A stretch of 64,000 nt of DNA from Nitrospirota bacterium (lineage in GTDB: Bacteria > Nitrospirota > Thermodesulfovibrionia > Thermodesulfovibrionales > Dissulfurispiraceae). A model generated the notes under the pieces. It was not told where the DNA came from. It did not search any database and saw nothing but the letters and a program-made list of their open reading frames with translations. The first letter of the stretch is position 1. Each line of letters begins with the position of its first letter. The position numbers and the translations under genes are program-made. Where the stretch lies: positions 9,016 to 73,015 of the forward strand of contig JBBITU010000001.1 in the NCBI GenBank assembly GCA_037440605.1, in the 5' to 3' direction. Of the stretch, positions 4,623 through 42,109 are shown one piece after another.

Positions 4623-6659
4623 ATGAAAAAATCAAATCAAATCAAATTCCTCTTTTTAGCTATCTTTATCATCATCATAATTACTTTTGCGCAAATCTAT
4701 TACTTCAAATTTCCCCATGCTGACATGACCACAAGGTTCATACTTACAAGCATTCTTACATTCAATATCGTTGCACTTCTTACGCTTATCTTTTTTGTTA
4801 CAAGAAACCTGTTCAAGCTTTTTATCCAGAGAAGGGATAAGATTCCTGGTTATAGATTCAGGAGCCGCCTTGTAGCAATTTTTATGATTCTGATTTTGAT
4901 ACCGTCGGTCTCTCTGTTTATTGTCTCAACCGGACTATCAACAAACTATATAAACAGGTTTTTTTCGCTGCCGGTTAAAGAGAGCCTTACCAATTCAGTT
5001 GAGCTTGCAAGGGCATTCTACGATCTTGAAAAGGATAGGGTTTTAAATATTGCAAAACAGATTTCGAGAGGCAGCAAGTCGCCCACAGATGAAGTGTCAG
5101 TAATGAGACTCAACCATTTGCCGGAAGATGCCAATGAATTGATAAAAGAGGCTTTTGAGGGCAAAGAAGGCGCAGAGATAATATCTTCACCAGAAGGAGA
5201 CATTGTCAGGGCTGCGGCTCCTTCTTTCAAAGGCGGCAGCAGAGCAGAGATTATAGTCGTAGAATCAAGACTGCCTGTATCAATTTCCAAAAAATCCGAA
5301 AAATTAAGGACTTCTTATGAAGACTTTTTAGATTTTGAGTCTTTCAGGGCGCCTTTAAGCCTGAACTATATATTAATACTCAGCTTCATAACACTTATTA
5401 TGGTTTTTATGGGATTATGGTTTTCACTTAAGATTTCGCAGGGCATAACCGAACCTATTCAAAGCCTTGCAATTGCAACAAAAGAAGTAGCAGCTGGAAA
5501 TCTGAATGTCTTGGTTGACATAAAAACTGACGATGAGGTCGGCATCTTAATCAATTCTTTCAACCAAATGGTCAGAGAGATCAAGGACAATAAAGACTCC
5601 ATCGAAAAAGCTTATGCAGAGTCTGATAAAAGGAGATTATTTTTAGAAAACATACTCGAAAACATCAACTCAGGGGTGATTTTTTTAGATGATGCTATGA
5701 CCATCTTAACAATAAATAAAGCGGCATGCTCAATACTTAATATTAAACAGGACGATTTTGCCGGCAGGAATTACGAAGACTTCATAACTCATCTTAACTC
5801 TCCTGATTTGAGCAGCCTCATAGAAACCCTTAAAGGCAAAAAGATAACGGATATAAAAAAGGAGGTCACTTTAGAAATTAATGGCAACAAAACAATCCTT
5901 ACAGTTTATATTTCAGGCATATGGGACAAGCAATCCCGCAAATCACTTGGACTGCTTGTTGTTTTTAATGATATTACCAAGATAGTTGCAGCACAAAAGG
6001 CTGAAGCATGGCAGGAGTTTGCCCGCAAGGTAGCACATGAGATTAAAAACCCGCTGACACCGATAAGGCTATCCACTGAAAGACTCATAAATAAATGGCG
6101 GCAGAAAAGCGAAGACCTTGACGCCGTTTTTGAAAAATCTACAAAGGCTATTATTCGCGAAGTGGACAGCCTAAAAAATTTGATAGATGCATTTTCAAAA
6201 TACGGCAGAATGCCGGAAATAAACAAAAAATTAGTTAATGTAAAAGAATTGCTCGAAGATGTTACCATACTGTACAGCGGATTTAAGGATGTTGATATCC
6301 AGATCTTAATAAATGAAGGAATCCCCGATATTAACCTTGACAGGGAACAAATCAAAAGGGCTTTGATTAATATTATTGATAATGGCATAGAGGCTATTGA
6401 CAGGAATGGCATTATCAAAATTGGCGTCAGTATGGACTCTGATAATTTAACCATAGAGATTGCTGATTCAGGACTCGGCATCAAAGATGATGAAAAGGAA
6501 AAGCTGTTCCTTCCATATTTTTCAAAGAGAAAGGGTGGGACAGGGCTGGGGCTTGCCATAGCAAGCAAGGTGATAAAGGATCACGAGGGGCAGATTTCAA
6601 TAAGGGATAATATTCCGCAAGGCAGTATTTTTGTTTTAAAATTACCCATATATAAATAG
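4623..6659 (+). CDS. ntrY: sensor histidine kinase, NtrY-like (multi-TM, HAMP, PAS, HisKA, HATPase_c)
   Basis: 678 aa. N-terminal TM segments, H-box AHEIKNPLTPIRLSTERL, N-box/G-boxes (IDNGIEA, DSGLGI, GGTGLGLAI). Confidence 0.8.
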   Translation: MKKSNQIKFLFLAIFIIIIITFAQIYYFKFPHADMTTRFILTSILTFNIVALLTLIFFVTRNLFKLFIQRRDKIPGYRFRSRLVAIFMILILIPSVSLFIVSTGLSTNYINRFFSLPVKESLTNSVELARAFYDLEKDRVLNIAKQISRGSKSPTDEVSVMRLNHLPEDANELIKEAFEGKEGAEIISSPEGDIVRAAAPSFKGGSRAEIIVVESRLPVSISKKSEKLRTSYEDFLDFESFRAPLSLNYILILSFITLIMVFMGLWFSLKISQGITEPIQSLAIATKEVAAGNLNVLVDIKTDDEVGILINSFNQMVREIKDNKDSIEKAYAESDKRRLFLENILENINSGVIFLDDAMTILTINKAACSILNIKQDDFAGRNYEDFITHLNSPDLSSLIETLKGKKITDIKKEVTLEINGNKTILTVYISGIWDKQSRKSLGLLVVFNDITKIVAAQKAEAWQEFARKVAHEIKNPLTPIRLSTERLINKWRQKSEDLDAVFEKSTKAIIREVDSLKNLIDAFSKYGRMPEINKKLVNVKELLEDVTILYSGFKDVDIQILINEGIPDINLDREQIKRALINIIDNGIEAIDRNGIIKIGVSMDSDNLTIEIADSGLGIKDDEKEKLFLPYFSKRKGGTGLGLAIASKVIKDHEGQISIRDNIPQGSIFVLKLPIYK

Positions 6660-6660
6660 C

Positions 6661-6821
6661 GGCTGTTTATAAATACTCATTGTTATTGAAATCTGTCATT
6701 CCAGAGAATCCAGACACTGTTCCCGAAGGTCTTAATCGGGGAACTATAACCATATGCCACTAGGTTACCCTGCCAAGTCTGGGAATGACAGGACGTGAGA
6801 ATCATAGTTTATAAACAGTTC
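6661..6821. repeat. family B element (core with GTCATTCC...GGGAATGAC hairpin)
   Basis: GGCTGTTTATAAATACTCATTGTTATTGAAATCTGTCATTCC ... ATAGTTTATAAACAG. It occupies the ntrY-ntrX intercistronic gap. Confidence 0.7.
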
Positions 6822-6840
6822 TAAAATAGCTTCAGGAGTT

Positions 6841-8214
6841 GTGATGTCAACAGGCTTGATACTAGTTGTAGATGATGACATGGGCGTTAGTGAAAGTCTA
6901 TCTGATACCTTAAGCGATGTTGGATATGATGTTATAAAGGCTTCTTCAGGCGAGGATGCCATTGAGCTAATCAAGGATAATCCCCCTGATATTATATTTC
7001 TCGATATTTGGCTGCCTAAAATGGATGGAATACAGACGCTCTCACTGATAAAAGAGAGTCTTGATGTTCCTGTTGTCATGATATCAGCTCATGGAGATAT
7101 AGAGACTGCCGTCAAGGCTATTAAGCTCGGCGCTTATGATTTTCTTGAAAAACCCCTCACAGAAGACGATATCTTTCTTGTAATTAAAAGGGCTTTTGAA
7201 TTGAGAAGACTTGCGTCTGAAAACCGTAATCTCAAGGCTGCCCTTAGTAAAAAATGGAAACTGGTAGGTGATTCAGAGAAAATCAAAAGCCTGAATCAGC
7301 AGATCGAAATGGCTGCACAGAGCAATAGCAGGGTTCTTATCATGGGAGAAAGCGGAACAGGCAAGGAAATAATAGCGCGATTGCTGCATGAAAAAAGCCC
7401 CAGACACGACCATCAGTTCATAGAGGTCAACTGTGCTGCAATTCCACAGGAGCTAATAGAGAGCGAATTATTCGGGCATGAAAAAGGTTCCTTCACCGGC
7501 GCATCTGAGAGAAAGACAGGCAAGTTTGAACTTGCTGATAAAGGCACTTTGTTTTTAGATGAAATTGGTGATATGTCATTAAAGACACAGGCAAAGGTAT
7601 TGAGAGTGATAGAAACCCAGACATTCCAGAGAGTGGGCGGCAGTAAAAATATCAAGGTAGATACTCGTATTATTGCGGCTACAAACAAGGATTTGCCAAG
7701 TGAGGCTCGGAAGGGCAACTTCAGGGAAGACTTGTATTTCAGGCTTAATGTCATTCCCATTGTCTCTCCTGCTTTGAGGGAGAGGCTGGAAGACATCCCC
7801 CAGCTTGTCCAATACTTTATATCCATGCTTCGCCATGAAAGCGGATTAAAAGCAAAGGATATAAGCCCTGAGGTTATAAACATGTTCAAGGATTATCATT
7901 GGCCCGGCAATATAAGAGAGCTGAAAAATGCAATTGAAAGGCTTATAATAATGGTGCCCTCAAATATTATCAGCAAAAATGATATAGAGAATTCCGGCGT
8001 ACTGCAATTAAGAAAGTCTTCACAAGAATATAACTACTTCTCCTATAAAACGCTTAAAGATGCCAGAGACGCCTTTGAGCGGGACTATATCATCAAAAAG
8101 CTTGGTGAAAATAACTGGAATATATCTAAAACCTCCGATGCCATAGCTGTCGAAAGAAGCAATCTTCACAAAAAGATAAAGCTGTATGAAATAAATGAGC
8201 AAAAAGATGAATGA
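6841..8214 (+). CDS. ntrX: sigma-54-dependent two-component response regulator (NtrX/NtrC/AtoC family)
   Basis: REC domain (DD..D..K pattern). AAA+ domain with Walker A GESGTGKE, ESELFGHEKGSFTGA (a GAFTGA-loop variant) and the RELKN arginine finger region. C-terminal Fis-type HTH. Confidence 0.85.
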   Translation: MMSTGLILVVDDDMGVSESLSDTLSDVGYDVIKASSGEDAIELIKDNPPDIIFLDIWLPKMDGIQTLSLIKESLDVPVVMISAHGDIETAVKAIKLGAYDFLEKPLTEDDIFLVIKRAFELRRLASENRNLKAALSKKWKLVGDSEKIKSLNQQIEMAAQSNSRVLIMGESGTGKEIIARLLHEKSPRHDHQFIEVNCAAIPQELIESELFGHEKGSFTGASERKTGKFELADKGTLFLDEIGDMSLKTQAKVLRVIETQTFQRVGGSKNIKVDTRIIAATNKDLPSEARKGNFREDLYFRLNVIPIVSPALRERLEDIPQLVQYFISMLRHESGLKAKDISPEVINMFKDYHWPGNIRELKNAIERLIIMVPSNIISKNDIENSGVLQLRKSSQEYNYFSYKTLKDARDAFERDYIIKKLGENNWNISKTSDAIAVERSNLHKKIKLYEINEQKDE

Positions 8215-17685: not shown

Positions 17686-18807
17686 TCAGAATCTCAAAAA
17701 GGCGCCGATACCCCCTGCCTTTGATAATTTCTCATTCTCCTCTATAACTTCTATTAAAGCCCCCTGTTGAATTGATTTCTGAGCGGCAATTTCTATCATA
17801 TAATCTATCGTCTCAAATTCCCCTTTGCAGTAAGGACATTCATTTATTAACTGGGCTGCCAAAAAACCGCATGATTTACAATTTAACCCCTTTTGTTTAT
17901 AGGAAGATATAAAGACAAGTTTCATCACCCTTTGCTCCTGTATGGCGTTAAGTACATTTTCGAGTCCTAAAACTGCGGATTCGTTTTTCATCGCCTTTGC
18001 AATAAGCTCTTTGACTGTCTCTTCTTCTTTATTTTTCTCATGTGCCAAAAGAATAGGTTCAACTTTATTCATTACTTCATCACTTTTGGCAAACATTTCT
18101 ATCTTGACATTCCCTATAATCTTATCAGTAACCGTTTTGTGCAGCATAGCCCTGACCATAGAGACAGCCTCATCAGAACCGCCCAGAATCAATCGCCCTA
18201 TATATTCCCTGCTGAGAAAGGTCTCGAGTTTTTCGATTACCTCCTTAAGGTGAATGCCAACAAGTAAATTTGTGTGTCTTTCGTAATGATTCTGTGAAAG
18301 TCCAAACCAGCCCCCCTTTTTATGTTTGCCCGGTATATCGGCTGAATATACCTCACCATATTCAACTATTTCCCCAAGATGAACCACAAAAATCCGTGCT
18401 GAATCCTTCCCAACGAGCAAGACGCCATATCTCTGATAGTTGTCAAGGATATCCATCAGAGGTTTTATATAAACAGACTTATCCACTATCAGCTCATTTT
18501 TGATAGGCACGCCAAGATTATATTCCTTCCACAATGAAGCATCCTTAGAACTAAAAACTGATAACCCCTTTTTAAATGTTCTTTTGTTTGTAAGGACATG
18601 ATGTTCGATTTTATCGAGATCATCCTTTACTTTTTTGTATATAGCCTTGTCAAGAGATTCTGTGGTGCTTTTGATCATGTTTTTGAGGTGGACAATGTAG
18701 TCTCCCTTTTTGTTAAAAACAGGGTCAACATTCAGATAAAGACTTACAAAATAACCACCCTTTCCATTATAAGCAGACATCTCCTTTAATTCTGTCATAC
18801 TAAGCAT
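17686..18807 (-). CDS. eRF1/Pelota-like (bacterial baeRF1-type) protein with an inserted CxxC...CxxC zinc ribbon
   Basis: PGKHKKGGWFGLSQNHYERH aligns by eye to the aRF1 GGQ loop region (KKHGRGGQS..RFERL). AVLGLENVLNAIQEQRVMKLVF resembles eRF1 domain 3. The zinc-ribbon motif is CKSCGFLAAQLINECPYCKG. The start is taken at the ATG at 18807 behind a GGAGG RBS, overlapping the upstream gene by 8 nt. Confidence 0.6.
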   Translation of the reverse strand: MLSMTELKEMSAYNGKGGYFVSLYLNVDPVFNKKGDYIVHLKNMIKSTTESLDKAIYKKVKDDLDKIEHHVLTNKRTFKKGLSVFSSKDASLWKEYNLGVPIKNELIVDKSVYIKPLMDILDNYQRYGVLLVGKDSARIFVVHLGEIVEYGEVYSADIPGKHKKGGWFGLSQNHYERHTNLLVGIHLKEVIEKLETFLSREYIGRLILGGSDEAVSMVRAMLHKTVTDKIIGNVKIEMFAKSDEVMNKVEPILLAHEKNKEEETVKELIAKAMKNESAVLGLENVLNAIQEQRVMKLVFISSYKQKGLNCKSCGFLAAQLINECPYCKGEFETIDYMIEIAAQKSIQQGALIEVIEENEKLSKAGGIGAFLRF

Positions 18808-19849
18808 CGTTGCCTCCTTCCTCATTTCTAAAAATTTCGATAACGGATACAAAAATAGCGACGACAAGCGGTCCCATTACAAGCCCGATCAAACCAAACA
18901 ACTTTAACCCGCCAAGGACACTGAAGAATATTAAAAGGACAGGCATTTTTGTCCTGCCCCCAATTATGATTGGCTTGAGTATATTGTCAATGAGGCTTAT
19001 TATAAATGTCCCGACAAGGGCAAGAATAATTCCCTCCCAAAAATCGCCCTTGATAAAAAGATAGGCTGTCATAGGTCCCCATATCCCGAAAGCGCCTATT
19101 AGCGGAATGAAGGAGGCTATCGAGATTGCCAACCCCCATAAGGCTGGGGATGAAATCCCAAGGAAAAAGAAGGTCAGCCCGCCTATTGTTCCCTGTGCAA
19201 TGGCTACCGCAACCCCGCCGTAGATGGTAGAGACTACTACATCCCTCGTCTGGGATGTGAGCCGTTCATTTTGTTCATATGAAAAAGGCAGATAATCTCT
19301 GAGCTTCTTAAGAAAACCATCGCCGTCCTTGAGCATAAAAAAAAGCGCAATAGTCATAAACAAAAAATTGATACTGATGGACACTATATTACCAACGCCT
19401 TTGGTAAAAGTATCGATCAATTCCTTCCCAAATTTTGAGACATTTTCCACTATTGATTTATCAATTTCTCCTTCTGAAAGGTTGAACGTTGCCAGAATCT
19501 TTTGTATAATGCCCTGAATAAAAGGGGTTTCGATAGTTTTCTTAAACTGAACTATGCCGCTTTCAGCAAGATATCCGGGTAGTTCTTTTAGTTCCATCGC
19601 AATTAAAAAAGAGATATATGAAAACGGGCCGATTATAATGAGAAGAATCACAATAAGCATGAAAACGGATGCCAGAGACTTCCTTTTTATATATCTGCGT
19701 ATGAATTTAAAAACAGGATAAAAAAGAATTGCAAGCACGATTCCCCATGCTATGGGAGATAAAAAGGGCTTGAATATTTGATAGCAAAGATAACCCAATA
19801 ATGTTACTAACGCCAGAACTGAGACAAAGTGAAATCTGTTAGATTGCAT
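18800..19849 (-). CDS. AI-2E family transporter (PerM/YhhT, UPF0118)
   Basis: 349 aa, about 8 TM segments, with the conserved C-terminal pattern GGLKLFGLIGLVMGP typical of AI-2E permeases. Confidence 0.75.
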   Translation of the reverse strand: MQSNRFHFVSVLALVTLLGYLCYQIFKPFLSPIAWGIVLAILFYPVFKFIRRYIKRKSLASVFMLIVILLIIIGPFSYISFLIAMELKELPGYLAESGIVQFKKTIETPFIQGIIQKILATFNLSEGEIDKSIVENVSKFGKELIDTFTKGVGNIVSISINFLFMTIALFFMLKDGDGFLKKLRDYLPFSYEQNERLTSQTRDVVVSTIYGGVAVAIAQGTIGGLTFFFLGISSPALWGLAISIASFIPLIGAFGIWGPMTAYLFIKGDFWEGIILALVGTFIISLIDNILKPIIIGGRTKMPVLLIFFSVLGGLKLFGLIGLVMGPLVVAIFVSVIEIFRNEEGGNDA

Positions 19850-31035: not shown

Positions 31036-33333
31036 GTGGGAAAGAAACAGCCTGTTAAACATGACAAAGAGAAGATTTCTTTTGTTGGTCGCATAGGCGG
31101 CAAGCCCCTTATAATCTTTTTTCTAGCCTCCGCAGCAATCCTGACCTTTATTGCCTATCTCAGGTCACTTAATGGTCCGCTCGTATTAGATGATGCTCTC
31201 TATATAAAACCTTCTGAACTGGACGACATCTGGCGAAACCTCAAATTGAAGATCCGATCTGTCTCAGTTTTTTCATTTTCATTGAACTATAATATTTCTG
31301 GAATGAATCTTGCCGGGTTTAGGATTACAAACATCATCCTGCACATTCTTTCTGCCGGACTGGCTTTTTATCTAACCTATATAACATTAACCCTGCCTTC
31401 CATTAAAGAAAGATACAAAACCCTTAATGACAGGGAAATACCACTTTATGCAGCGCTTTTTGTTGCAGTTCTCTTTGCTTTGCATCCCATACAGACCTCA
31501 GCGGTGAATTATATCACTCAAAGGATGGCAATAATGGCATCCATGTTCTCCTTTGCCGGATTAATCTTATACATTAGGGGATCACTAAACACAGGAAAAA
31601 AATCTATACTTTTTTATCTTTTCTCATCGGTCTCTTTTATACTTGCCATCTTTTCCAAGGAGAACGCAGTAATGGCAATTATCATGCTTCCTGTGTATGA
31701 TTTTATCTTTCTCTCCTCTTTGCAATGGAAAGAATTCAAAAAAAGGTTTATCCCACTCTGCGTTATTTTTGGAGCATCGGCTTTATTAGCAGCATCTGCC
31801 ATGAACGTAATGCCATTTCTAAGTCAAATAATTAAACTCGTCTTAAACCCTAATATGCCTATGGAGTGGTATGGCTGGTCAGGCAGGGACATTGACTGGA
31901 CCCCTATCGAATACTTCCTCACAGAGTTAAGGATAGTCTCAAGGTATATATTTATAATCCTTGTGCCTTTGCCTTCCTTGATGGTCTTTGATTATTCAAG
32001 TGCATTTCCTGTATCCAAGGGCCTTTTTGATCCTTTAACTACATTGTTTTCTCTATTATTTCTTTTATCAGCAATGTTTTTTTCGCTGAGGTATATTAAA
32101 AAGGCTCCACTTATCTCTTTTGGCATATTATGGTATCTTGTAACAATTTCACTTGAAAGCTTTGTCGCCCTCGGGTTAGACCCATATTTTGAGCATAGAA
32201 ACTATCTGCCGGCTTTCGGGCTTTTTTTTGCATCTGCTTCCCTGCTCATTAATGTTGATAAAATCCGTGTAGGATTAAGGAAAGAAGCGATTATTGCCTT
32301 CGCCGCCATCTTATTATTTGCTCTTACATTTGTGCGTAATGGAGTATGGGCGGATGATGAAATTCTCTGGAAGGACACCCTTGAGAAATCACCCAATAAT
32401 ACTAGAGCAATGATTGCATTAAGCAGCATCAATATCATGGAAAAGAGATTTCATGAAGCAGGGGAATATCTAAAAAGAGCGCAGGCAGCCTCGCCATCCC
32501 CTATAATCATGCCTAATATTCTATTTAATCAGGCTTCTATCTATAGGCAGACTAACAGGCGTCAGGAGTCGCTTGATATACTTAAGCAATTGGACGAAGA
32601 GAAAGCCTTTCCAAAAGGAGAAACCCGCAGTTTGGTAAGTTACCTTATAGGCGAAATTTTATGTGAACAAGGCGATTTTATTCAGGCAAGGAAATATTTT
32701 AAAAAGGCTTACCGGTGGATGCCCCAAATAGCAGATAATATTATCAACCTTGGACTCGCAAGCAGATCTCGCGGCGAGCTTGATGCGGCTGAAGGCTATT
32801 TCAAGAATGCTGTTGCAATAGCTCCTGAAAAGATTATCCCCTATGTGCAATTAGGAGAAATATATCTCGCGAAAAATGCTATATACAAGGCAGAGGAAAA
32901 ATATCAGGAGGCTATCGCAAAAAAACCGGCAGATGCAGATATCCAAAGAAGAGCATTATTCGGCATGGCTCAGATAAAATTGATAAAGGGAGATGCTGGT
33001 GAAGCAAAAAAACTTTTTCAGGAAGTCATCAAAATTACCCCTGCCTTTTATCCGCCGTATATTTTTTTAGGAAGGATACTTTTAGAAGAAAATGAACCGA
33101 AACAAGCGCTTTATCATCTTGAAAAGGCGCTTTCATTTAAAGCTTCTTTTAAAAAAAATGAACCTAACACGAAACTTTTATATTTTTATCTGGCTAATGC
33201 ATATCTCGCAATAGGAGATAACAAGTTAGCGAGGGAAAATTTGAGTATTTTTATCTCTCTGTATGAGGGAGATAAAAGGCTCGAAAAACAATATGAAAGG
33301 GCAAAGAAGGCATTGGCAAAAATCAAAGAATGA
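31036..33333 (+). CDS. GT-C-fold membrane glycosyltransferase (PMT/ArnT/TMTC-like) fused to C-terminal TPR repeats
   Basis: About 440 aa with 10 or more TM segments. First-loop acidic motif GPLVLDDALYIKPSE. About 320 aa of TPR repeats follow (repeated A..Y..A...P pattern). Confidence 0.7.
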   Translation: MGKKQPVKHDKEKISFVGRIGGKPLIIFFLASAAILTFIAYLRSLNGPLVLDDALYIKPSELDDIWRNLKLKIRSVSVFSFSLNYNISGMNLAGFRITNIILHILSAGLAFYLTYITLTLPSIKERYKTLNDREIPLYAALFVAVLFALHPIQTSAVNYITQRMAIMASMFSFAGLILYIRGSLNTGKKSILFYLFSSVSFILAIFSKENAVMAIIMLPVYDFIFLSSLQWKEFKKRFIPLCVIFGASALLAASAMNVMPFLSQIIKLVLNPNMPMEWYGWSGRDIDWTPIEYFLTELRIVSRYIFIILVPLPSLMVFDYSSAFPVSKGLFDPLTTLFSLLFLLSAMFFSLRYIKKAPLISFGILWYLVTISLESFVALGLDPYFEHRNYLPAFGLFFASASLLINVDKIRVGLRKEAIIAFAAILLFALTFVRNGVWADDEILWKDTLEKSPNNTRAMIALSSINIMEKRFHEAGEYLKRAQAASPSPIIMPNILFNQASIYRQTNRRQESLDILKQLDEEKAFPKGETRSLVSYLIGEILCEQGDFIQARKYFKKAYRWMPQIADNIINLGLASRSRGELDAAEGYFKNAVAIAPEKIIPYVQLGEIYLAKNAIYKAEEKYQEAIAKKPADADIQRRALFGMAQIKLIKGDAGEAKKLFQEVIKITPAFYPPYIFLGRILLEENEPKQALYHLEKALSFKASFKKNEPNTKLLYFYLANAYLAIGDNKLARENLSIFISLYEGDKRLEKQYERAKKALAKIKE

Positions 33334-33375
33334 TTGTCCAATAAGGGTGAAGCTAACTTTAGCTTAGCATTATTT

Positions 33376-33470
33376 ATTAACCCAGAAAATGCAATTAGCC
33401 TATTAAAACATAGCTGCCGTGAGAGATGCTAAACCCAAACAGTGCAATTGAAATTCTCTTTAGCAGGTAC
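33376..33470. repeat. two tandem 5-prime fragments of family A
   Basis: ATTAACCCAGAAAATGCAATTAGCC... and GCTAAACCCAAACAGTGCAATTGAAATTCTCTTTAGCAGG. Confidence 0.6.
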
Positions 33471-33500
33471 CGGTAGTGAATAGAAAAATCTCATTGTAAA

Positions 33501-33645
33501 CTAAATAGAGTCTGTTTATAAACTCTAAAATACCCCTCACCCTTACCCTCTCCCGCAAGGGGAGAGGGTTGTTAAATATGCCCCTCCCTTGACGGGAGGG
33601 GTTGGGGGAGGGTGAATAATCGTAATTTATAAACAGACACTATTT
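33501..33645. repeat. family B element (G-rich double-hairpin core)
   Basis: CTAAATAGAGTCTGTTTATAAAC ... AATTTATAAACAGACACTATTT. Confidence 0.85.
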
Positions 33646-33774
33646 AGAGTCCGTTTATAAACTCGTTTTTTGTCACCCTGAGCCTGTCGAAGGGTGATGT
33701 AAATCCTTGTTTTTGCGTCATGGTTCGACAAGCTCACCATGACAATTAGGCATTTATAAACAGACACTAAATAG
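33641..33774. repeat. family B element (GTCACCCTGAGCCTGTCGAAGGGT core), abutting the previous copy
   Basis: TATTTAGAGTCCGTTTATAAACTCG ... CATTTATAAACAGACACTAAATAG. Confidence 0.85.
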
Positions 33775-33850
33775 ATGCGCAAATGAGGATAGGCATGGAA
33801 AAAAATACACATGCTGAAGAATATAATACACACAGCAGCCTATGCGCTGC

Positions 33851-33995
33851 TATTTAGTGTCTGTTTATAAACTATAAAATCCCCCTCACCCTTGCCCTCT
33901 CCCGCAAGGGGAGAGGGTTGTTAAATATGCCCCTCCCTTGACGGGAGGGGTTGGGGGAGGGTGAATAATCGTAATTTATAAACAGACACTATTTA
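33851..33995. repeat. family B element (G-rich core), near-duplicate of 33501..33645
   Basis: TATTTAGTGTCTGTTTATAAACTATAAAATCCCCCTCACCC ... AATTTATAAACAGACACTATTT. Confidence 0.85.
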
Positions 33996-34135
33996 GAGTC
34001 CGTTTATAAACTCTCATTGTTATTGAAGGCTGTCATTCCCGCGAAAGCGGGAATCCAATTCCTTATGTCTGGATGCCCGACTAAGGACCCCCGACTACAA
34101 ACTTCGAGGGCAGGCTTCGGGCATCACAAAAAACA
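33991..34135. repeat. family B element lacking a right terminus (ATTCCC-N8-GGGAAT core)
   Basis: TATTTAGAGTCCGTTTATAAACTCTCATTGTTATTGAAGGCTGTCATTCCCGCGAAAGCGGGAATCC...CTTCGGGCAT. Confidence 0.7.
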
Positions 34136-34292
34136 AAATGAGACTTAATAGAAAGCATAAAATGCCGGGGAATCAGAAATTGGCTTGTTTTTTGCTAAGA
34201 GATTAAATCTTATGAAAGATTATGTGATGTTTAAGTTATCTTCTTATAAGTCGGGGTTTATCCCGAACTGTAAGGCAAGGATTCCTCTATTT

Positions 34293-34330
34293 GTTCGTAA
34301 TGGCAATAGTGAGAGGTTCGTAATGGCAAT
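34293..34330 (+). promoter_or_regulatory. 15-bp direct repeat GTTCGTAATGGCAAT x2 (23-bp period), candidate regulator binding site
   Basis: Exact copies at 34293..34307 and 34316..34330, about 60-95 bp upstream of the first -35 box. Confidence 0.3.
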
Positions 34331-34387
34331 TTCAGAGCACATTTGTATAGAAAAATAGATCAACTCAGGGTTAGGTTAAAAAAAACC

Positions 34388-34416
34388 TTGACAATGAATG
34401 CATTAGTGCTTATAAT
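34388..34416 (+). promoter_or_regulatory. consensus sigma-70 promoter (TTGACA-17-TATAAT)
   Basis: TTGACA at 34388..34393, 17-nt spacer, TATAAT at 34411..34416. Confidence 0.65.
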
Positions 34417-34488
34417 TTTTAATATAATCATACGAGGATTAATCCAGTAATTTCTTGCAAAGATAATAGAATGAACTTAAAAAAAGTC

Positions 34489-34517
34489 TTGACAAAGGCA
34501 GGTCGTTTATTTACAAT
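34489..34517 (+). promoter_or_regulatory. near-consensus sigma-70 promoter (TTGACA-17-TACAAT)
   Basis: TTGACA at 34489..34494, 17-nt spacer, TACAAT at 34512..34517. This leaves a leader of about 190 nt. Confidence 0.65.
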
Positions 34518-34713
34518 TATTGCAATAGACGAATGATAAGCGGTTTACCAGCAGCTATCATTAACGGCTGCCGTATGGCACACAATGATTTTTTGATAAA
34601 AAGGAGGTGATTAGGCAAAGAAGGGAGGGATTATTCAGGTTTTTCCGTTTTTGTCCGTTCTTAGCCATTGGCTAAGTTAAGACCAAGCAGTTAATTTAAA
34701 AGGAGGTTCGAAA

Positions 34714-35688
34714 GTGAAGTTTAAGAATTTATTAGTGATTGTAGCAATGATTAGCGTATTATTTTTGAGCATCGGCACATCCCATGCTGTTCCGGGTGTT
34801 GCTGATTATGTGCCCGGCACAGATTCGGTCGTAATCTTCATGTGCGAAGATACCGCTGCCGATCTGGATCCAGTTGTGCCGACCGGGACAATGAATACCC
34901 TGTGGGCAATTGCAGAGACAACAGGTATTAGTGCTGCCGCATCCACATTCATCTTTAACACCAAGAGTGAATTTGTACTCGATGATAGAGCAGGTTGGAC
35001 GCCTCTTGATGTAGTCGTTGACGATTGCCAGAGTATGATTGCCGGTTTGTCACAGGCTAACAGGACGGCGCTCCGCCATACAGTAACAATGAATGGTGTG
35101 GCAAAGACCGTATTTGCCGGCTATGTAGTTTACTTCAACGATGTGTTATCTGACCAGTTTATTTCATGGCAGTATATGGTAGATATGCCTAATGGCTTCT
35201 CCGCAGGCTTCAATGGCTTCTCTGCTGAAGGCGGCGTAGACTTCACCAGTGCTTTCCCGTTTACAGCGAGCAACCTTGCTGAGAACCTTGGATTAGATCC
35301 TGTTAACGCTTTAGAGCTTTATCCAAGATGGTTCTTATTAAACACCAACGCCAACACCTTCAACTGGTGGATAATCCTGAAGGGCGGACCTTCCGTTACC
35401 TCAGGCCACGTCCTCAGCGGCATTGTTTGTGATGAAGCAGAGAATTGCAGGTCAATAGCAATTCCTATACCTCTTAACCTAAACATCATTGATGTAAAAC
35501 CGAATATCCCTGCGGCGCTAAAAGCTAGCTACCCTGCCGGCGGATTCGGCTTATTCGATGTGATCGTCCCCTCCAATCGCAGCATACTCGGCTGGTCATA
35601 CCAGAGAGCAGCAACAAATGCTATAGCAACAAACTGGGATGTAATTCATCCGATGCATAGATGGGGTCCAATTCCAGTACCACAATAA
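34714..35688 (+). CDS. secreted protein of unknown family (paralog 1; candidate major surface-structure protein)
   Basis: GTG start 7 nt after an AGGAGG RBS. Sec signal peptide MKFKNLLVIVAMISVLFLSIGTSHA|VPG. No motif I recognise. It aligns in blocks with 40624..41631. Confidence 0.8.
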   Translation: MKFKNLLVIVAMISVLFLSIGTSHAVPGVADYVPGTDSVVIFMCEDTAADLDPVVPTGTMNTLWAIAETTGISAAASTFIFNTKSEFVLDDRAGWTPLDVVVDDCQSMIAGLSQANRTALRHTVTMNGVAKTVFAGYVVYFNDVLSDQFISWQYMVDMPNGFSAGFNGFSAEGGVDFTSAFPFTASNLAENLGLDPVNALELYPRWFLLNTNANTFNWWIILKGGPSVTSGHVLSGIVCDEAENCRSIAIPIPLNLNIIDVKPNIPAALKASYPAGGFGLFDVIVPSNRSILGWSYQRAATNAIATNWDVIHPMHRWGPIPVPQ

Positions 35689-35713
35689 ATTGATCTCATT
35701 ATGAGAGTTTTAA

Positions 35714-35744
35714 AAAGGGATGGGCTTGCCCATCCCTTTTTTTA
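35714..35744 (+). terminator. rho-independent terminator
   Basis: GGGATGGG-CTTG-CCCATCCC followed by TTTTTTT. Confidence 0.8.
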
Positions 35745-35765
35745 GTTACTTAAGGAGGCTTGTTA

Positions 35766-36071
35766 ATGAAGATTTTTATTATTGCAATCTGTTATATCTT
35801 TTTCACATTTGGCTCCATTTACGCAGATGCCCCGCAGGAGGTTGTCCTTGGGGTGATAAAGCATGTAAATTGTAAAGACGGGGAAGTTACCCTGACCACA
35901 AGATCAGGCGATGTCCTTTTTTATATTGGTAAAGATGCAGCTTATAATACAGCGCAAGGCTGCGAGGATATAAAAGAAGGTTATATAGCAGTGCTTAAAT
36001 ACAAAAATGAGGACGGCAAAAAAACCGCTTCATTAATAAAGATTAAAATTCCGGGAGAGGTAAAAAAATGA
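35766..36071 (+). CDS. small exported protein, unknown function
   Basis: An AAGGAGG RBS lies 7 nt upstream of the ATG at 35766. Signal peptide MKIFIIAICYIFFTFGSIYA|DAP. About 80-aa mature protein. Confidence 0.65.
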   Translation: MKIFIIAICYIFFTFGSIYADAPQEVVLGVIKHVNCKDGEVTLTTRSGDVLFYIGKDAAYNTAQGCEDIKEGYIAVLKYKNEDGKKTASLIKIKIPGEVKK

Positions 36072-37303
36072 GAATATCCTCAGCTTTACTTATTCTTATT
36101 CTGTTCCTTTATGGTTGTGCTGGGGTAACAAAAAGCCTGCAATCAGACAGCGAGAGTCTTTACACAATAACCCCTGCATCAACAGGGCTTCCTGCAGATG
36201 GTCTCTGGCGGGAAAACATTATTCTTTATGACTTTAACGGCGATGGCTCTATCGAAATTCTCGCTCCTCCTCCGAGAAAGGCAAAACCCGAAGAGAAAAA
36301 ACCTTTCGTCTTTGTTTTTGATACAAAAGATAAAAAATGGTCTGAACAAAAATATGCCTTTCCAACACTCGACTATGATTACGGCGGGATAGCCGCCGGT
36401 GATATAAACAGGGACGGCTTTACAGATATAGCACTGGCAACCCACAGAGGCAGGCTTCATCTGCTGATAAATAATGGAGACGGAACCTTTAGTAATGCGC
36501 CTTTTCCTGTAAAAGAAGATTTCTACTCGAGAAAAGTGACAATAGCTGATATAAATGGAGACGGCTGGCTTGATATTGTTGCCATCTCTGAAGCCCCATT
36601 CACCAAAGGATATGTCCCGAAAGGCTTGCTGATTGCAATAAACAAAGAAGGCAGGGATTGGGAGATAACCCTTATAGGCGACAGCATGGGTTTATTCTCA
36701 GATTTTCTCTCTGTTGGAGATATTAATGGAGACGGAGCGCTTGACATTGTGATATCTCCATTTACTGCTGTTAGGGATGATATGAAAGCCGTCTGGCTGG
36801 GAGACCGCAAGGGCGGCTTCATTCATTACAAGTCAGATTTTACGGGTGATATGCTGACCGAGCAGGTCAGGACAGGCGATATTGACGGTGACGGAAAAGA
36901 TGAGATTGTTTATATTCTTTCTGGAATGGGCGAAAGCGCCGCATTCCCATTAAAGGCATTCAAATGGAGTCCTGAGGGAATCAAGGACATCTCAGAGGGG
37001 CTACAGAAGATTAAAAAAACACTCGTTTTTGATCTTGCGGACATTGACGGAGACGCTAAAAAAGACATCGTTCTCCTATCTGATGAGGGACTCCATATCT
37101 TTAAATACAGCGGCTCTGGATGGGTTGAACTTTTCCGCCATCCCATTCCTTCTAAGGAAATTTTGGGCGCTGAGGATCTAATGACAGCCCAACAGTCTGA
37201 CGGCTCATTTATCATAGCATACAGCCTTGGCATGGAAAACCCTGAGTTTCAAAGAGGTATCAGGGCTTTTATTTTAAACCCCAAAAGGGGGGCGGACAAA
37301 TGA
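36068..37303 (+). CDS. lipoprotein with FG-GAP/VCBS repeats (predicted beta-propeller)
   Basis: Lipobox LFLYGC. Six repeats of the Ca-binding-like motif: DFNGDGSIEIL, GDINRDGFTDIAL, ADINGDGWLDIVA, GDINGDGALDIVI, GDIDGDGKDEIVY, ADIDGDAKKDIVL. It has an ATGA overlap with the upstream ORF. Confidence 0.8.
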   Translation: MRISSALLILILFLYGCAGVTKSLQSDSESLYTITPASTGLPADGLWRENIILYDFNGDGSIEILAPPPRKAKPEEKKPFVFVFDTKDKKWSEQKYAFPTLDYDYGGIAAGDINRDGFTDIALATHRGRLHLLINNGDGTFSNAPFPVKEDFYSRKVTIADINGDGWLDIVAISEAPFTKGYVPKGLLIAINKEGRDWEITLIGDSMGLFSDFLSVGDINGDGALDIVISPFTAVRDDMKAVWLGDRKGGFIHYKSDFTGDMLTEQVRTGDIDGDGKDEIVYILSGMGESAAFPLKAFKWSPEGIKDISEGLQKIKKTLVFDLADIDGDAKKDIVLLSDEGLHIFKYSGSGWVELFRHPIPSKEILGAEDLMTAQQSDGSFIIAYSLGMENPEFQRGIRAFILNPKRGADK

Positions 37304-40623: not shown

Positions 40624-41631
40624 TTAAGGCAGCCAATGAGGCAGAATCGTTGACTCAAACATTGCCTCCCATGTCAAGGCAGGATTTAAAGGATAATTGG
40701 CGGAGTTAAATGAAAACGCATAAACATTAAAGTTTTCAGGTATGTCGTTAATCCATATCTGTCCATTTATGTCTCCTAAGACATCAATGACATTCACAAT
40801 TCTGTTAAGACTGAGCGTGCCAGATGCAATTTGAACGCCAGCCTCATTGAAATACCAATAAGGGAACGGCCCTCCCACATCTCCAGGAGCAGTCGTTGTG
40901 CCATATGCAGCAGGACCCCATGCCCAGAAAACGATCCTGGTCTCGCCGTTGCCCGCTACATATACCCGGCTTATAGTATGATTAAGCTTATTATCAGGGT
41001 CATCTATGATGGATAAGCCGCGTGTTGTACGATATGCATAATACCTTGCGTGATTGTCAATCTCTTCCCTGTCATCGCCTGATTGATATAACCCTCTCGC
41101 ATTTGGGTGAAGAGCTACGCTCAATCCGCCTTCTATATGCACCATGGGGATCCCGTTTGCAGCGCCTTCAAGAAGCCTCACATAATAAATCCAGCCTGTC
41201 AGGCAGTTGGCGCTACGAAATGGATACAGCGGGTTAACAGGTAAATGAGTCGTGCCTGCAGTCACTAAATCAATTGTCATAAAGCCTCTGTAAAAGTCTC
41301 CGTCTGTAAGCTGAGTGCGCACAGCAGGACTGGCTGAGGCAAGGATAGAGCCGAAATCGCTGACGAATGAACCGGTAAATGTTACATTTCCATATGCATT
41401 GGTTGCGTTGCCGTTTACATCCCATATTTCCCAGTGAATGGTTTGGGATCCTGAACATAAACTATCTACAACAATTAGTGTGTTATGGACACTCGTAATC
41501 CCTTTCTCCATCAGTGGAACAATTAGTGTGGCTGACTGGACTTGGTCAGGAATTCCAATGACCGCCTGTGCGCTGCTGCTGTAGCTGATTAATAACAAGA
41601 CTGCAATAATGCAGAAAAAAATCTTCTTCAT
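40624..41631 (-). CDS. secreted protein of unknown family (paralog 2 of 34714..35688)
   Basis: An AAGGAGGG RBS precedes the ATG. Signal peptide MKKIFFCIIAVLLLISYSSSAQA|VIG. Colinear similarity blocks with paralog 1. Confidence 0.8.
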   Translation of the reverse strand: MKKIFFCIIAVLLLISYSSSAQAVIGIPDQVQSATLIVPLMEKGITSVHNTLIVVDSLCSGSQTIHWEIWDVNGNATNAYGNVTFTGSFVSDFGSILASASPAVRTQLTDGDFYRGFMTIDLVTAGTTHLPVNPLYPFRSANCLTGWIYYVRLLEGAANGIPMVHIEGGLSVALHPNARGLYQSGDDREEIDNHARYYAYRTTRGLSIIDDPDNKLNHTISRVYVAGNGETRIVFWAWGPAAYGTTTAPGDVGGPFPYWYFNEAGVQIASGTLSLNRIVNVIDVLGDINGQIWINDIPENFNVYAFSFNSANYPLNPALTWEAMFESTILPHWLP

Positions 41632-41779
41632 AAACCCTCCTTAAAAAATGCTAAAGAAATTACTAAATGCTCTCTGTTACTGGGAAAGTCATCCCGAATC
41701 GCTGCAAAAAATCTTGTGCCAATTCGCATTCAAACCGCACCTTATATGAAGTATAGCGATTATACCCTCTTTGGCAAAG

Positions 41780-41838
41780 AGGGGTTTCGGGCATCCATCA
41801 CTGCTTTTTGAGATCTAAACACATTTTTTAGGTTAAGC
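41780..41838. repeat. 3-prime fragment of family A
   Basis: GGGGTTTCGGGCATCCATCACTGCTTTTTGAGATCTAAACACATTTTTTAGGTTAAGCC. Confidence 0.5.
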
Positions 41839-42080
41839 CGCAAGTTAGAGAGCCATCCCATGCTGACAGCTAATTATCTCTCACCTCCTTTCCATGTCCA
41901 TTCAAATTTGTTCACCCGCTCTTGTTAGAATCTGTTTACCAATACTACTTCATCACACTCCCGTCGAGGGATAGGATAATCTAAAATCTCATATTGCGGG
42001 AGAGCCTGACTGTGCGTTGCACTCTGACAGGGGCGATGGTGAGTGGGATTTTAGGCAAATTATCAACAGCCTATACTTAA

Positions 42081-42109
42081 TTTATATCACAAAAGAATGG
42101 GGAGGTCAA
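42081..42109 (-). promoter_or_regulatory. near-consensus sigma-70 promoter with extended -10 (TTGACC-17-TGaTATAAA)
   Basis: The minus strand reads TTGACC TCCCCATTCTTTTGTGA TATAAA. It lies 9 nt downstream of the stop of 42118..44100 and about 440 nt upstream of the ATG at 41631. Confidence 0.5.

Follow-up and report, generated by a model that had tools for sequence, protein, structure and literature searches.

A 5' stabiliser that resembles a Shine-Dalgarno (SD) sequence is represented by the STAB-SD of Bacillus thuringiensis cry3A, which was reportedly described by Agaisse and Lereclus in 1996 and which, according to what Mathy and colleagues are said to have found in 2007, blocks RNase J1. 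STAB-SD is an SD-like sequence in the cry3A 5' untranslated region (UTR) that acts as a 5' mRNA stabiliser (reviewed in PMC4113751), and another well-described leader, that of Lactobacillus slpA, combines two promoters with a long stabilising 5' UTR and gives an mRNA half-life of ~15 min (PMC3666127). The present analysis concerns positions 34181-35743 of the window, a stretch of 64,000 nucleotides (nt) from a Nitrospirota bacterium of the Thermodesulfovibrionales (assembly GCA_037440605.1, contig JBBITU010000001.1, positions 9,016 to 73,015), the source genome being a metagenome-assembled genome (MAG) of 2.17 Mb in 136 contigs that is 97% complete. With slightly better than even confidence, this segment can be read as a high-output cassette that expresses the first gene of a block for surface or envelope proteins and whose leader would dock the 30S ribosomal subunit in the manner of STAB-SD. 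What is new is a lineage-wide cassette, a leader module that has not been catalogued, and the exchange of the cargo behind it.

As in cry3A, a very highly expressed gene, the central element of the leader is SD-like, complementary to 16S rRNA, non-translating and situated in a long 5' UTR, and the genome encodes RNase J (TIGR00649 match of 624 bits against a cut-off of 400 bits). It differs from STAB-SD in belonging to a diderm Nitrospirota host, in being longer (11-13 nt), in lying ~85 nt from the nearest predicted transcription start, and in having a conserved hairpin downstream of it and, in many cases, one or two additional SD-like tracts, while stabilisation is for this leader a presumed property. 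Both slpA and the present locus place tandem promoters ahead of a long leader, end in a strong terminator and encode a secreted protein whose mature part diverges fast. The slpA UTR, however, acts via its 5' secondary structure, whereas the core of the present leader consists of an orphan SD and a small internal hairpin; unlike the Lactobacillus S-layer genes with their biased codons, this gene shows no codon bias, and its 324-amino-acid (aa) product contains no recognisable S-layer domain. In keeping a fixed leader while exchanging cargo between close relatives, the locus also resembles the JUMPstart/ops-RfaH and LoaP leaders of surface-polysaccharide clusters, from which it departs by the lack of a NusG paralogue, by a protein-centred cargo (secreted protein, small proteins, beta-propeller lipoprotein) and by a junction at the SD of the first gene. 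The pap and fim operons, finally, offer the same layout of a strongly expressed first gene, a stable hairpin and promoterless accessory genes, a layout that sets subunit excess; here the block lacks chaperone-usher and type IV pilus assembly genes, and differential expression is a deduction.

The leader RNA and its distribution

The features of the locus, given in window coordinates, are as follows.

34181..34195, + strand: sigma-54-like -24/-12 element TGGCTTGTTTTTTGC (TGGC-N7-TTGC), from spacing and conservation
34293..34330, + strand: two 15-nt direct repeats GTTCGTAATGGCAAT at 23-nt spacing, from a repeat search
34376..34416, + strand: promoter P1, UP-like A-tract plus TTGACA-17-TATAAT, from consensus and -35 invariance
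34477..34517, + strand: promoter P2, A-tract AAAAAAAGT plus TTGACA-17-TACAAT, from consensus and near-invariance across genera
34532..34562, + strand: hairpin region HP1, inverted repeat AATGATAAGC ... GCTATCATT, from the alignment of orthologues
34599..34611, + strand: orphan SD sequence AAAAGGAGGTGAT, from 16S complementarity and conservation
34621..34629, + strand: second SD-like tract AAGGGAGGG, at a position shared with other leaders
34659..34677, + strand: hairpin HP2, (U)CUUAGCC-AUU-GGCUAAG(U), from pairing and covariation
34700..34716, + strand: true SD AAGGAGG, 7-nt spacer and GTG start, from sequence and conservation
34714..35688, + strand: gene for the 324-aa secreted all-beta protein ('paralog 1'), from its signal peptide and AlphaFold2 model
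35712..35743, + strand: intrinsic terminator (A5, 9-bp G+C stem, U7), from fold and conservation
35752..35768, + strand: SD (AAGGAGG) and ATG of the gene that follows, which heads a trio of exported accessory genes, from sequence

The order of these signals is conserved. Upstream regions were aligned for 11 loci whose proteins are 33-57% identical and which come from at least 4 families of the order (the scan of related loci with a closer alignment gave only 5 loci per collection), and they share the succession TGGC-N7-TTGC, P1, P2, palindrome, orphan SD, hairpin, SD and GTG. After P2 this mostly means the palindrome GCTATCATTGATAGC, then AAGGAGGTGAT(A), often a second GGAGG tract, and the hairpin; AAGGAGGTTTGAAAGTG is kept at the true SD, GTG is the start codon in 11 of 14 loci, and the leaders measure 173-227 nt. 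In the window, 196 nt separate the end of the P2 -10 box from the GTG. An earlier description of this DNA from its letters alone, here called the sequence-only reading, had estimated the leader at about 190 nt and had it contain a palindrome and end in a ribosome-binding site, all of which holds: the palindrome CTTAGCC-ATT-GGCTAAG lies at 34660..34676, and the SD AAGGAGG at 34700..34706 stands 7 nt ahead of the GTG at 34714.

The orphan SD is the most constant part of the leader. Its sequence AAGGAGGTGAT (34601-34611) forms an 11-nt perfect complement of the 3' end of the genome's own 16S rRNA, ...GGATCACCTCCTT (contig C19), and the core AAGGRGGTGA, at -102 to -125, is essentially invariant in 11 of 11 leaders, one locus having GGGGG for GGAGG. 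None of these 11 leaders places a start codon (ATG, GTG or TTG) 3-12 nt downstream of it, and because, in addition, the frames are not conserved, the element is taken as an orphan SD. A GGAGG-type second tract occurs at about -90 to -100 in six of the 11. An upstream open reading frame (uORF) or leader-peptide attenuator was considered and rejected, the second SD-like tract being followed only by sporadic frames of 1-11 codons that differ between loci.

The same purine-rich GGA tracts (orphan SD, second tract and true SD) could instead be binding sites for CsrA, which would block translation of the lead gene's mRNA until the repression is lifted by a partner protein or an export signal, for which the FliW-CsrA-flagellin circuit is the model. 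A csrA gene is present (86 bits), each leader contains 2-4 GGA-containing tracts, one of them the SD, and the cargo is secreted and possibly polymerising. The conserved 11-13 nt, however, reach beyond GGA to an exact anti-SD complement (GGAGGTGAT) which CsrA would not require, the GGA tracts fall outside the conserved hairpin loops, and orphan and true SD lie ~100 nt apart, a distance that exceeds the usual CsrA bridging distance, so that repression by CsrA is judged unlikely and docking of the 30S subunit at the orphan SD is preferred.

Tracts of this kind are found elsewhere in the genome as well. AAGGAGGTGA has only 23 genomic copies, most of which are real ribosome-binding sites, and AAGGAGGTGA tracts lie 70-85 nt upstream of open reading frames (ORFs) at C103:514 (a 146-aa protein) and C7:30599 (a cytochrome-c-like 308-aa protein) of this genome (G000). 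In the window, the leader of paralog 2 (41632-42109, - strand) carries an orphan AAAGGAGGTGA ~250 nt before the start and gives no match at E<0.01 to the leader model R1 described below. Upstream SD-like tracts may be a general habit of this genome.

About 50 nt downstream of the orphan SD, HP2 retains its pairing while its sequence changes. Across 34 leaders in an alignment fitted to the covariance model, 90% of cells are paired and all 8 of the 8 pairs are changed on both sides; the compensatory cells of this model-fitted alignment number 25, compared with 5.6+-1.9 in shuffles (0 of 500). The HP1 position holds the 15-nt palindrome GCTATCATTGATAGC in most orthologues, and the window retains one arm with a new partner; HP1 is either an RNA hairpin or an operator. 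RNAalifold of the leaders retains two small hairpins only. Rfam contains no match to the window at gathering score, and none inside 34158-35659 even at E<=5; the leader is taken as a conserved RNA module absent from that database.

Both palindromes, GCTATCATTGATAGC and CTTAGCC-N3-GGCTAAG, might alternatively serve, as DNA sites beyond P2, as operators to which dimeric repressors bind, in which case the leader would be conserved for control of transcription and not as RNA. They are near-perfect 7-1-7 and 7-3-7 inverted repeats whose arms are conserved in sequence and whose loops vary, and TATCATTGATA has 6 genome copies, mostly intergenic, against roughly 1.6 expected by our own estimate. Elsewhere, however, the whole HP2 stem is replaced (CCGCC/GGCGG, CTTAGTC/GACTAAG, GCTTCCC/GGGAAGC) with pairing and the 3-nt loop kept, G-U wobbles occur that are valid pairs on the sense RNA only, and the HP2 sequence of the window is unique in the genome. 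The remaining TATCATTGATA copies stand in no comparable context, which leaves a regulon of the HP1 palindrome unsupported, and repressor binding would leave the orphan SD unexplained. An operator role is therefore rated as clearly improbable, and HP2 is taken as an RNA hairpin of the proposed docking leader.

Of 301 genomes sampled from the class, 47 match a covariance model of the leader (R1) that spans orphan SD to start codon, roughly 21 with E<=1e-9; this is three times the number that contain the protein family of the window (14 of 301). The genes behind these matches include three uncharacterised families of secreted proteins rich in beta structure: the paralog-1 family; a second family of 244-484 aa, starting MRKL...SSIDNVPGGGG, of which only the first ~85 residues are related to the paralog-1 family; and a third of 356-472 aa, starting ...DAxLFPWIVKS, which in profile comparison resembles neither paralogue family significantly. 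Genes of the second and third families likewise have the full set of promoters ahead of them. Further cargo consists of outer-membrane beta-barrel porin-like proteins (Alginate_exp, E 1e-15) and a type IV pilin (N_methyl) and, at weaker scores, a PstS-like protein (assigned by eye from the N-terminal sequence only) and a small cytochrome c. The genome's own porin-like gene, outside the window (C109:789-1230, - strand), has a canonical sigma-54 site, TGGCATGTTTGTTGCA, followed by TTGACA-17-TATAAA and a leader with orphan AAGGAGGTGA, the hairpin CCGCC-CTT-GGCGG, AAAGGAGGTTAGGAAGTG and a GTG start, and by these signals it shares the leader grammar of paralog 1.

Promoters and upstream DNA

The two sigma-70-type promoters proposed by the sequence-only reading are found where it placed them, P1 (TTGACA-17-TATAAT, 34388..34416) matching the consensus at 12 of 12 positions and P2 (TTGACA-17-TACAAT, 34489..34517) at 11 of 12, the two lying 101 bp apart. 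They are the best two promoter-like sites within 33000-37000, a region where weak promoter-like sites are not enriched (12, compared with 8.7+-2.7 in shuffles). The whole genome holds three perfect TTGACA-17-TATAAT sites (0.93 expected), the other two being one that drives a tRNA-Thr/Tyr operon and one inside an ORF, and 12 TTGACA-17-TANAAT sites, two of which are the P1/P2 pair. A duplicated module of A-tract and -35 box, TTAAAAAAA(A/G)(C/T)CTTGACAA, precedes both promoters. The A-tracts, AAAAAAAAC ahead of P1 and AAAAAAAGT ahead of P2, are kept in orthologues, and the latter fits the proximal UP subsite, reportedly defined by Estrem and colleagues in 1999 as AAAAAARNR, an A-rich tract at about -38 to -46. 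The rRNA promoter of the same genome is built likewise, as an A-tract followed by TTGACA-17-TAGAAT, and by consensus P1 and P2 are predicted to equal or better the stable-RNA promoters of the organism. In the orthologues, P1 takes the form ACTTGACA-17/18-TATACT with a -35 box invariant in 11 of 11, while P2 lies 72-113 nt past P1 and its AAAAAAAGCTTGACAA(A/G)GG...TTACAAT is nearly invariant across genera.

Upstream of P1, the sigma-54-like element reads TGGCTTGTTTTTTGCT, with a spacing and GG/GC dinucleotides that fit TGGCAC-N5-TTGCW. Ten of the 11 orthologous loci retain it as TGGCCTGTTTTTTGC, as do cassettes that carry different cargo, and for the most part it precedes the P1 -35 box by 47-48 nt. 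In the window the distance to P1 is 207 nt, a displacement of about 160 nt owing to a lineage-specific insert of ~190 nt, which holds both GTTCGTAATGGCAAT direct repeats; these are confined to this species (also locus L001) and missing from orthologous cassettes. That the element has outlived its displacement is easier to reconcile with a promoter than with an activator site serving P1. Both rpoN and 16 enhancer-binding proteins are encoded in the genome, and its intergenic DNA contains 18 sigma-54-type sites against 5.2 expected; no upstream activating sequence (UAS) was identified for the element. At 4623-8214 of the window, 26 kb upstream of the cassette, a PAS/HAMP histidine kinase is encoded together with an NtrC-type sigma-54-dependent response regulator, which counts among the 16 enhancer-binding proteins.

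The DNA adjoining the cassette is repetitive. Positions 33501-34013 hold two 164-nt elements that are 96% identical and resemble miniature inverted-repeat transposable elements (MITEs), with a ~22-nt terminal inverted repeat, CTAAATAGAGTCTGTTTATAAA ... TTTATAAACAGACACTATTTAG, at their ends and with G-rich double-hairpin cores that give spurious miRNA-like Rfam matches. A repeat of ~105 nt with GTCATTCCCGCGAAAGCGGGAATCC follows at 34020-34130, full and partial copies of which account for ~185 blastn matches across the 2.17-Mb genome; the stretch 34131-34390, which belongs to the cassette proper, is unique.

Cargo, terminator and downstream genes

The behaviour of the cassette is seen most directly in two congeneric genomes, G143 (contig C71, locus L057) and G150 (contig C19, locus L058). 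Their housekeeping flank, with genes for aspartyl-tRNA synthetase (AspRS), a pseudouridine synthase, an epimerase, a deaminase and a TPR protein, is 85-95% identical at the amino acid level, and collinearity continues through the promoter-leader cassette to about 8 nt before the start codon, at the SD, past which ~9 kb with six genes are unrelated between the two. The cargo of G150 begins with the paralog-1 family, followed by an FG-GAP propeller and partners (judged by relatives' loci similar to the window), whereas that of G143 comprises the third family, a small protein, a BNR propeller, another small protein and a TPR membrane protein. The two blocks follow one gene grammar with different families. 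From this combination of a syntenic cassette with unrelated cargo it follows that the cassette acts as an expression site that stays in place while its cargo can be exchanged. The exchanged block is predicted to consist of a major secreted beta-rich protein followed by a small protein, a beta-propeller lipoprotein and a second small protein. More tentatively, and held with less confidence than the STAB-SD-like reading of the single locus, the sigma-54-like element, the two sigma-70 promoters and the orphan-SD-hairpin leader may form a single fixed site, kept throughout the Thermodesulfovibrionales, behind which recombination at the SD swaps whole surface-protein blocks, the leader representing a new family of RNA that docks 30S subunits without being translated and that the lineage would use in general for its most abundant envelope proteins, including porin-like proteins and a pilin.

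A lack of function, or only weak use, of these promoter-like and SD-like sequences, with the gene expressed at an ordinary level, is quite improbable. A low codon adaptation index (CAI) would suit such a view, and a consensus match alone is no proof of function; against it, neither -35 box varies, the -10 boxes are conserved across genera, the cassette is 91% nt identical between G143 and G150, at least as much as the flanking coding DNA (87%), and the perfect consensus otherwise serves a tRNA operon. A functional cassette with strong output is accordingly preferred.

The lead protein in the window has a signal peptide and, from 100 sequences, a confident all-beta two-domain AlphaFold2 model (predicted local distance difference test, pLDDT, 93.8). 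It contains no Pfam, NCBIfam or PHROG domain, a sequence-profile search of the PDB was empty, and Foldseek gave no fold match there at E<1e-3; the best, TM1070 (1nc7), covers one domain only, at E 7e-3. An S-layer identity finds no support in Pfam, NCBIfam or the PDB, which yield neither an S-layer or anchoring domain nor homology or fold similarity, and a search of the literature on surface layers or abundant proteins of Thermodesulfovibrionia returned nothing relevant. The description of slpA in PMC3666127 agrees with the general statement of the sequence-only reading that S-layer genes use multiple promoters and a long, stabilising 5' UTR. The family comprises ~129 cluster representatives, the named records all being from Nitrospirota/Thermodesulfovibrionales MAGs. 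The name 'paralog 1' refers to a relationship with the product of 40624..41631 (- strand) that is not apparent at the sequence level, where BLASTP is not significant and tblastn finds no paralogue in window or genome, but emerges in profile comparison (hhalign 99.1% probability, E 5e-19, 293 columns), by which 40624-41631 encodes a true remote paralogue. In the orthologue at locus L010 (G268:C13), an in-frame TGA occupies codon 45, one residue past the invariant Cys44 column and within a locally aberrant stretch (VDPDRL*RD in place of VVIPFICE); pseudogenisation, misassembly or recoding of the codon could each account for this.

Behind the gene, the strong terminator announced by the sequence-only reading was recovered as A5-GGGAUGGGC-UU-GCCCAUCCC-U7 at 35712..35743, with a folding energy of -20 kcal/mol (z = -4.3, none of 200 shuffles as stable). 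Its stem has 9 G/C-rich pairs, or 13 counting the A/U extension, and the stem sequence GGGATGGG/CCCATCCC is kept in orthologous loci, where the next gene begins 77-183 nt past the stop codon. In the window the SD of the next gene follows at 35752, 8 nt past the T-run, with its ATG at 35766, and the + strand between 34561 and 35920 contains no promoter-like site, so that the downstream exported trio must depend on read-through, as must the corresponding genes of the orthologous loci. The accessory genes co-occur with the protein family at other loci. The description of the gene as a stand-alone unit is for these reasons doubtful, while the emphasis on strong, conserved signals in the same interpretation stands; the sigma-54-like element, the orphan SD and the wider distribution had been overlooked. 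The likeliest arrangement is one operon in which a leaky internal terminator sets an excess of the first product. Recruitment of an RfaH/LoaP-type processive antiterminator by the leader, letting polymerase read through the terminator into the accessory genes, would match a conserved leader ahead of variable surface-structure gene blocks and a strong terminator with promoterless genes directly behind it, but is very improbable in a 97%-complete genome with a single NusG-family gene and no paralogue, and no ops-like motif was recognised. Farther away in the window, 17686-18867 (- strand) encodes a 393-aa protein matching baeRF_family10 (bacterial archaeo-eukaryotic release-factor family 10, E 4e-28).

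Proposed mechanism and significance

For the expression cassette with a 30S-docking leader, the following course may be envisaged. Transcription would proceed from two strong sigma-70 promoters with UP-like A-tracts, and a probable further start at the upstream sigma-54-type promoter would add an inducible input to a high basal output. The orphan SD would most likely dock a 30S subunit as STAB-SD does, and the docked subunit could shield the mRNA from 5'-end-dependent decay, feed the true ribosome-binding site, or both, with HP2 serving as a second barrier or as a processing-defined 5' end. The terminator would then most likely stop most transcripts, leaving the lead protein in excess over the three promoterless accessory exported proteins. 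The same leader type stands ahead of porin-like and type IV pilin genes, and beta-barrel porins and type IV pilins are classically abundant proteins. High abundance of the 324-aa protein is plausible on these grounds.

Several observations weigh against this course. With ~85 nt between it and the P2 start, the orphan SD does not stand at a 5' end, so that a STAB-SD-like role would need processing or protection from internal entry. The significant covariation of HP2 rests on an alignment fitted to the covariance model, and in the original set of 13 sequences it did not rise above shuffles, which is attributed to the conserved stem sequence; the fold of the whole leader is likewise no better than that of shuffles (z = -1.05). 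The CAI of the gene relative to 16 ribosomal-protein genes is 0.671, at the 10th percentile, in a genome whose codon bias is weak (reference 0.746 vs 0.713 overall). As for the sigma-54-type input, positions -22/-21 of the element deviate from the consensus, being TT here and CT in orthologues (TGGCTT/TGGCCT, not TGGCAC), and no enhancer-binding protein gene lies beside the cassette, the nearest being 26 kb off (window 6841-8214).

If the proposal is correct, the cassette would make it possible to recognise from sequence the dominant surface or envelope proteins of a sulfate-reducing lineage that is uncultured and widespread in the environment, and three unannotated protein families would be main surface components of these organisms. 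Orphan-SD stabilisers that work by ribosome docking, known from Bacillus, would then also operate in a deep-branching diderm phylum, and do so within a fixed RNA module. The cassette is, moreover, a candidate strong expression part for anaerobes, and the fact that cargo changes exactly at the SD hints at a simple way in which recombination could vary the cell surface.

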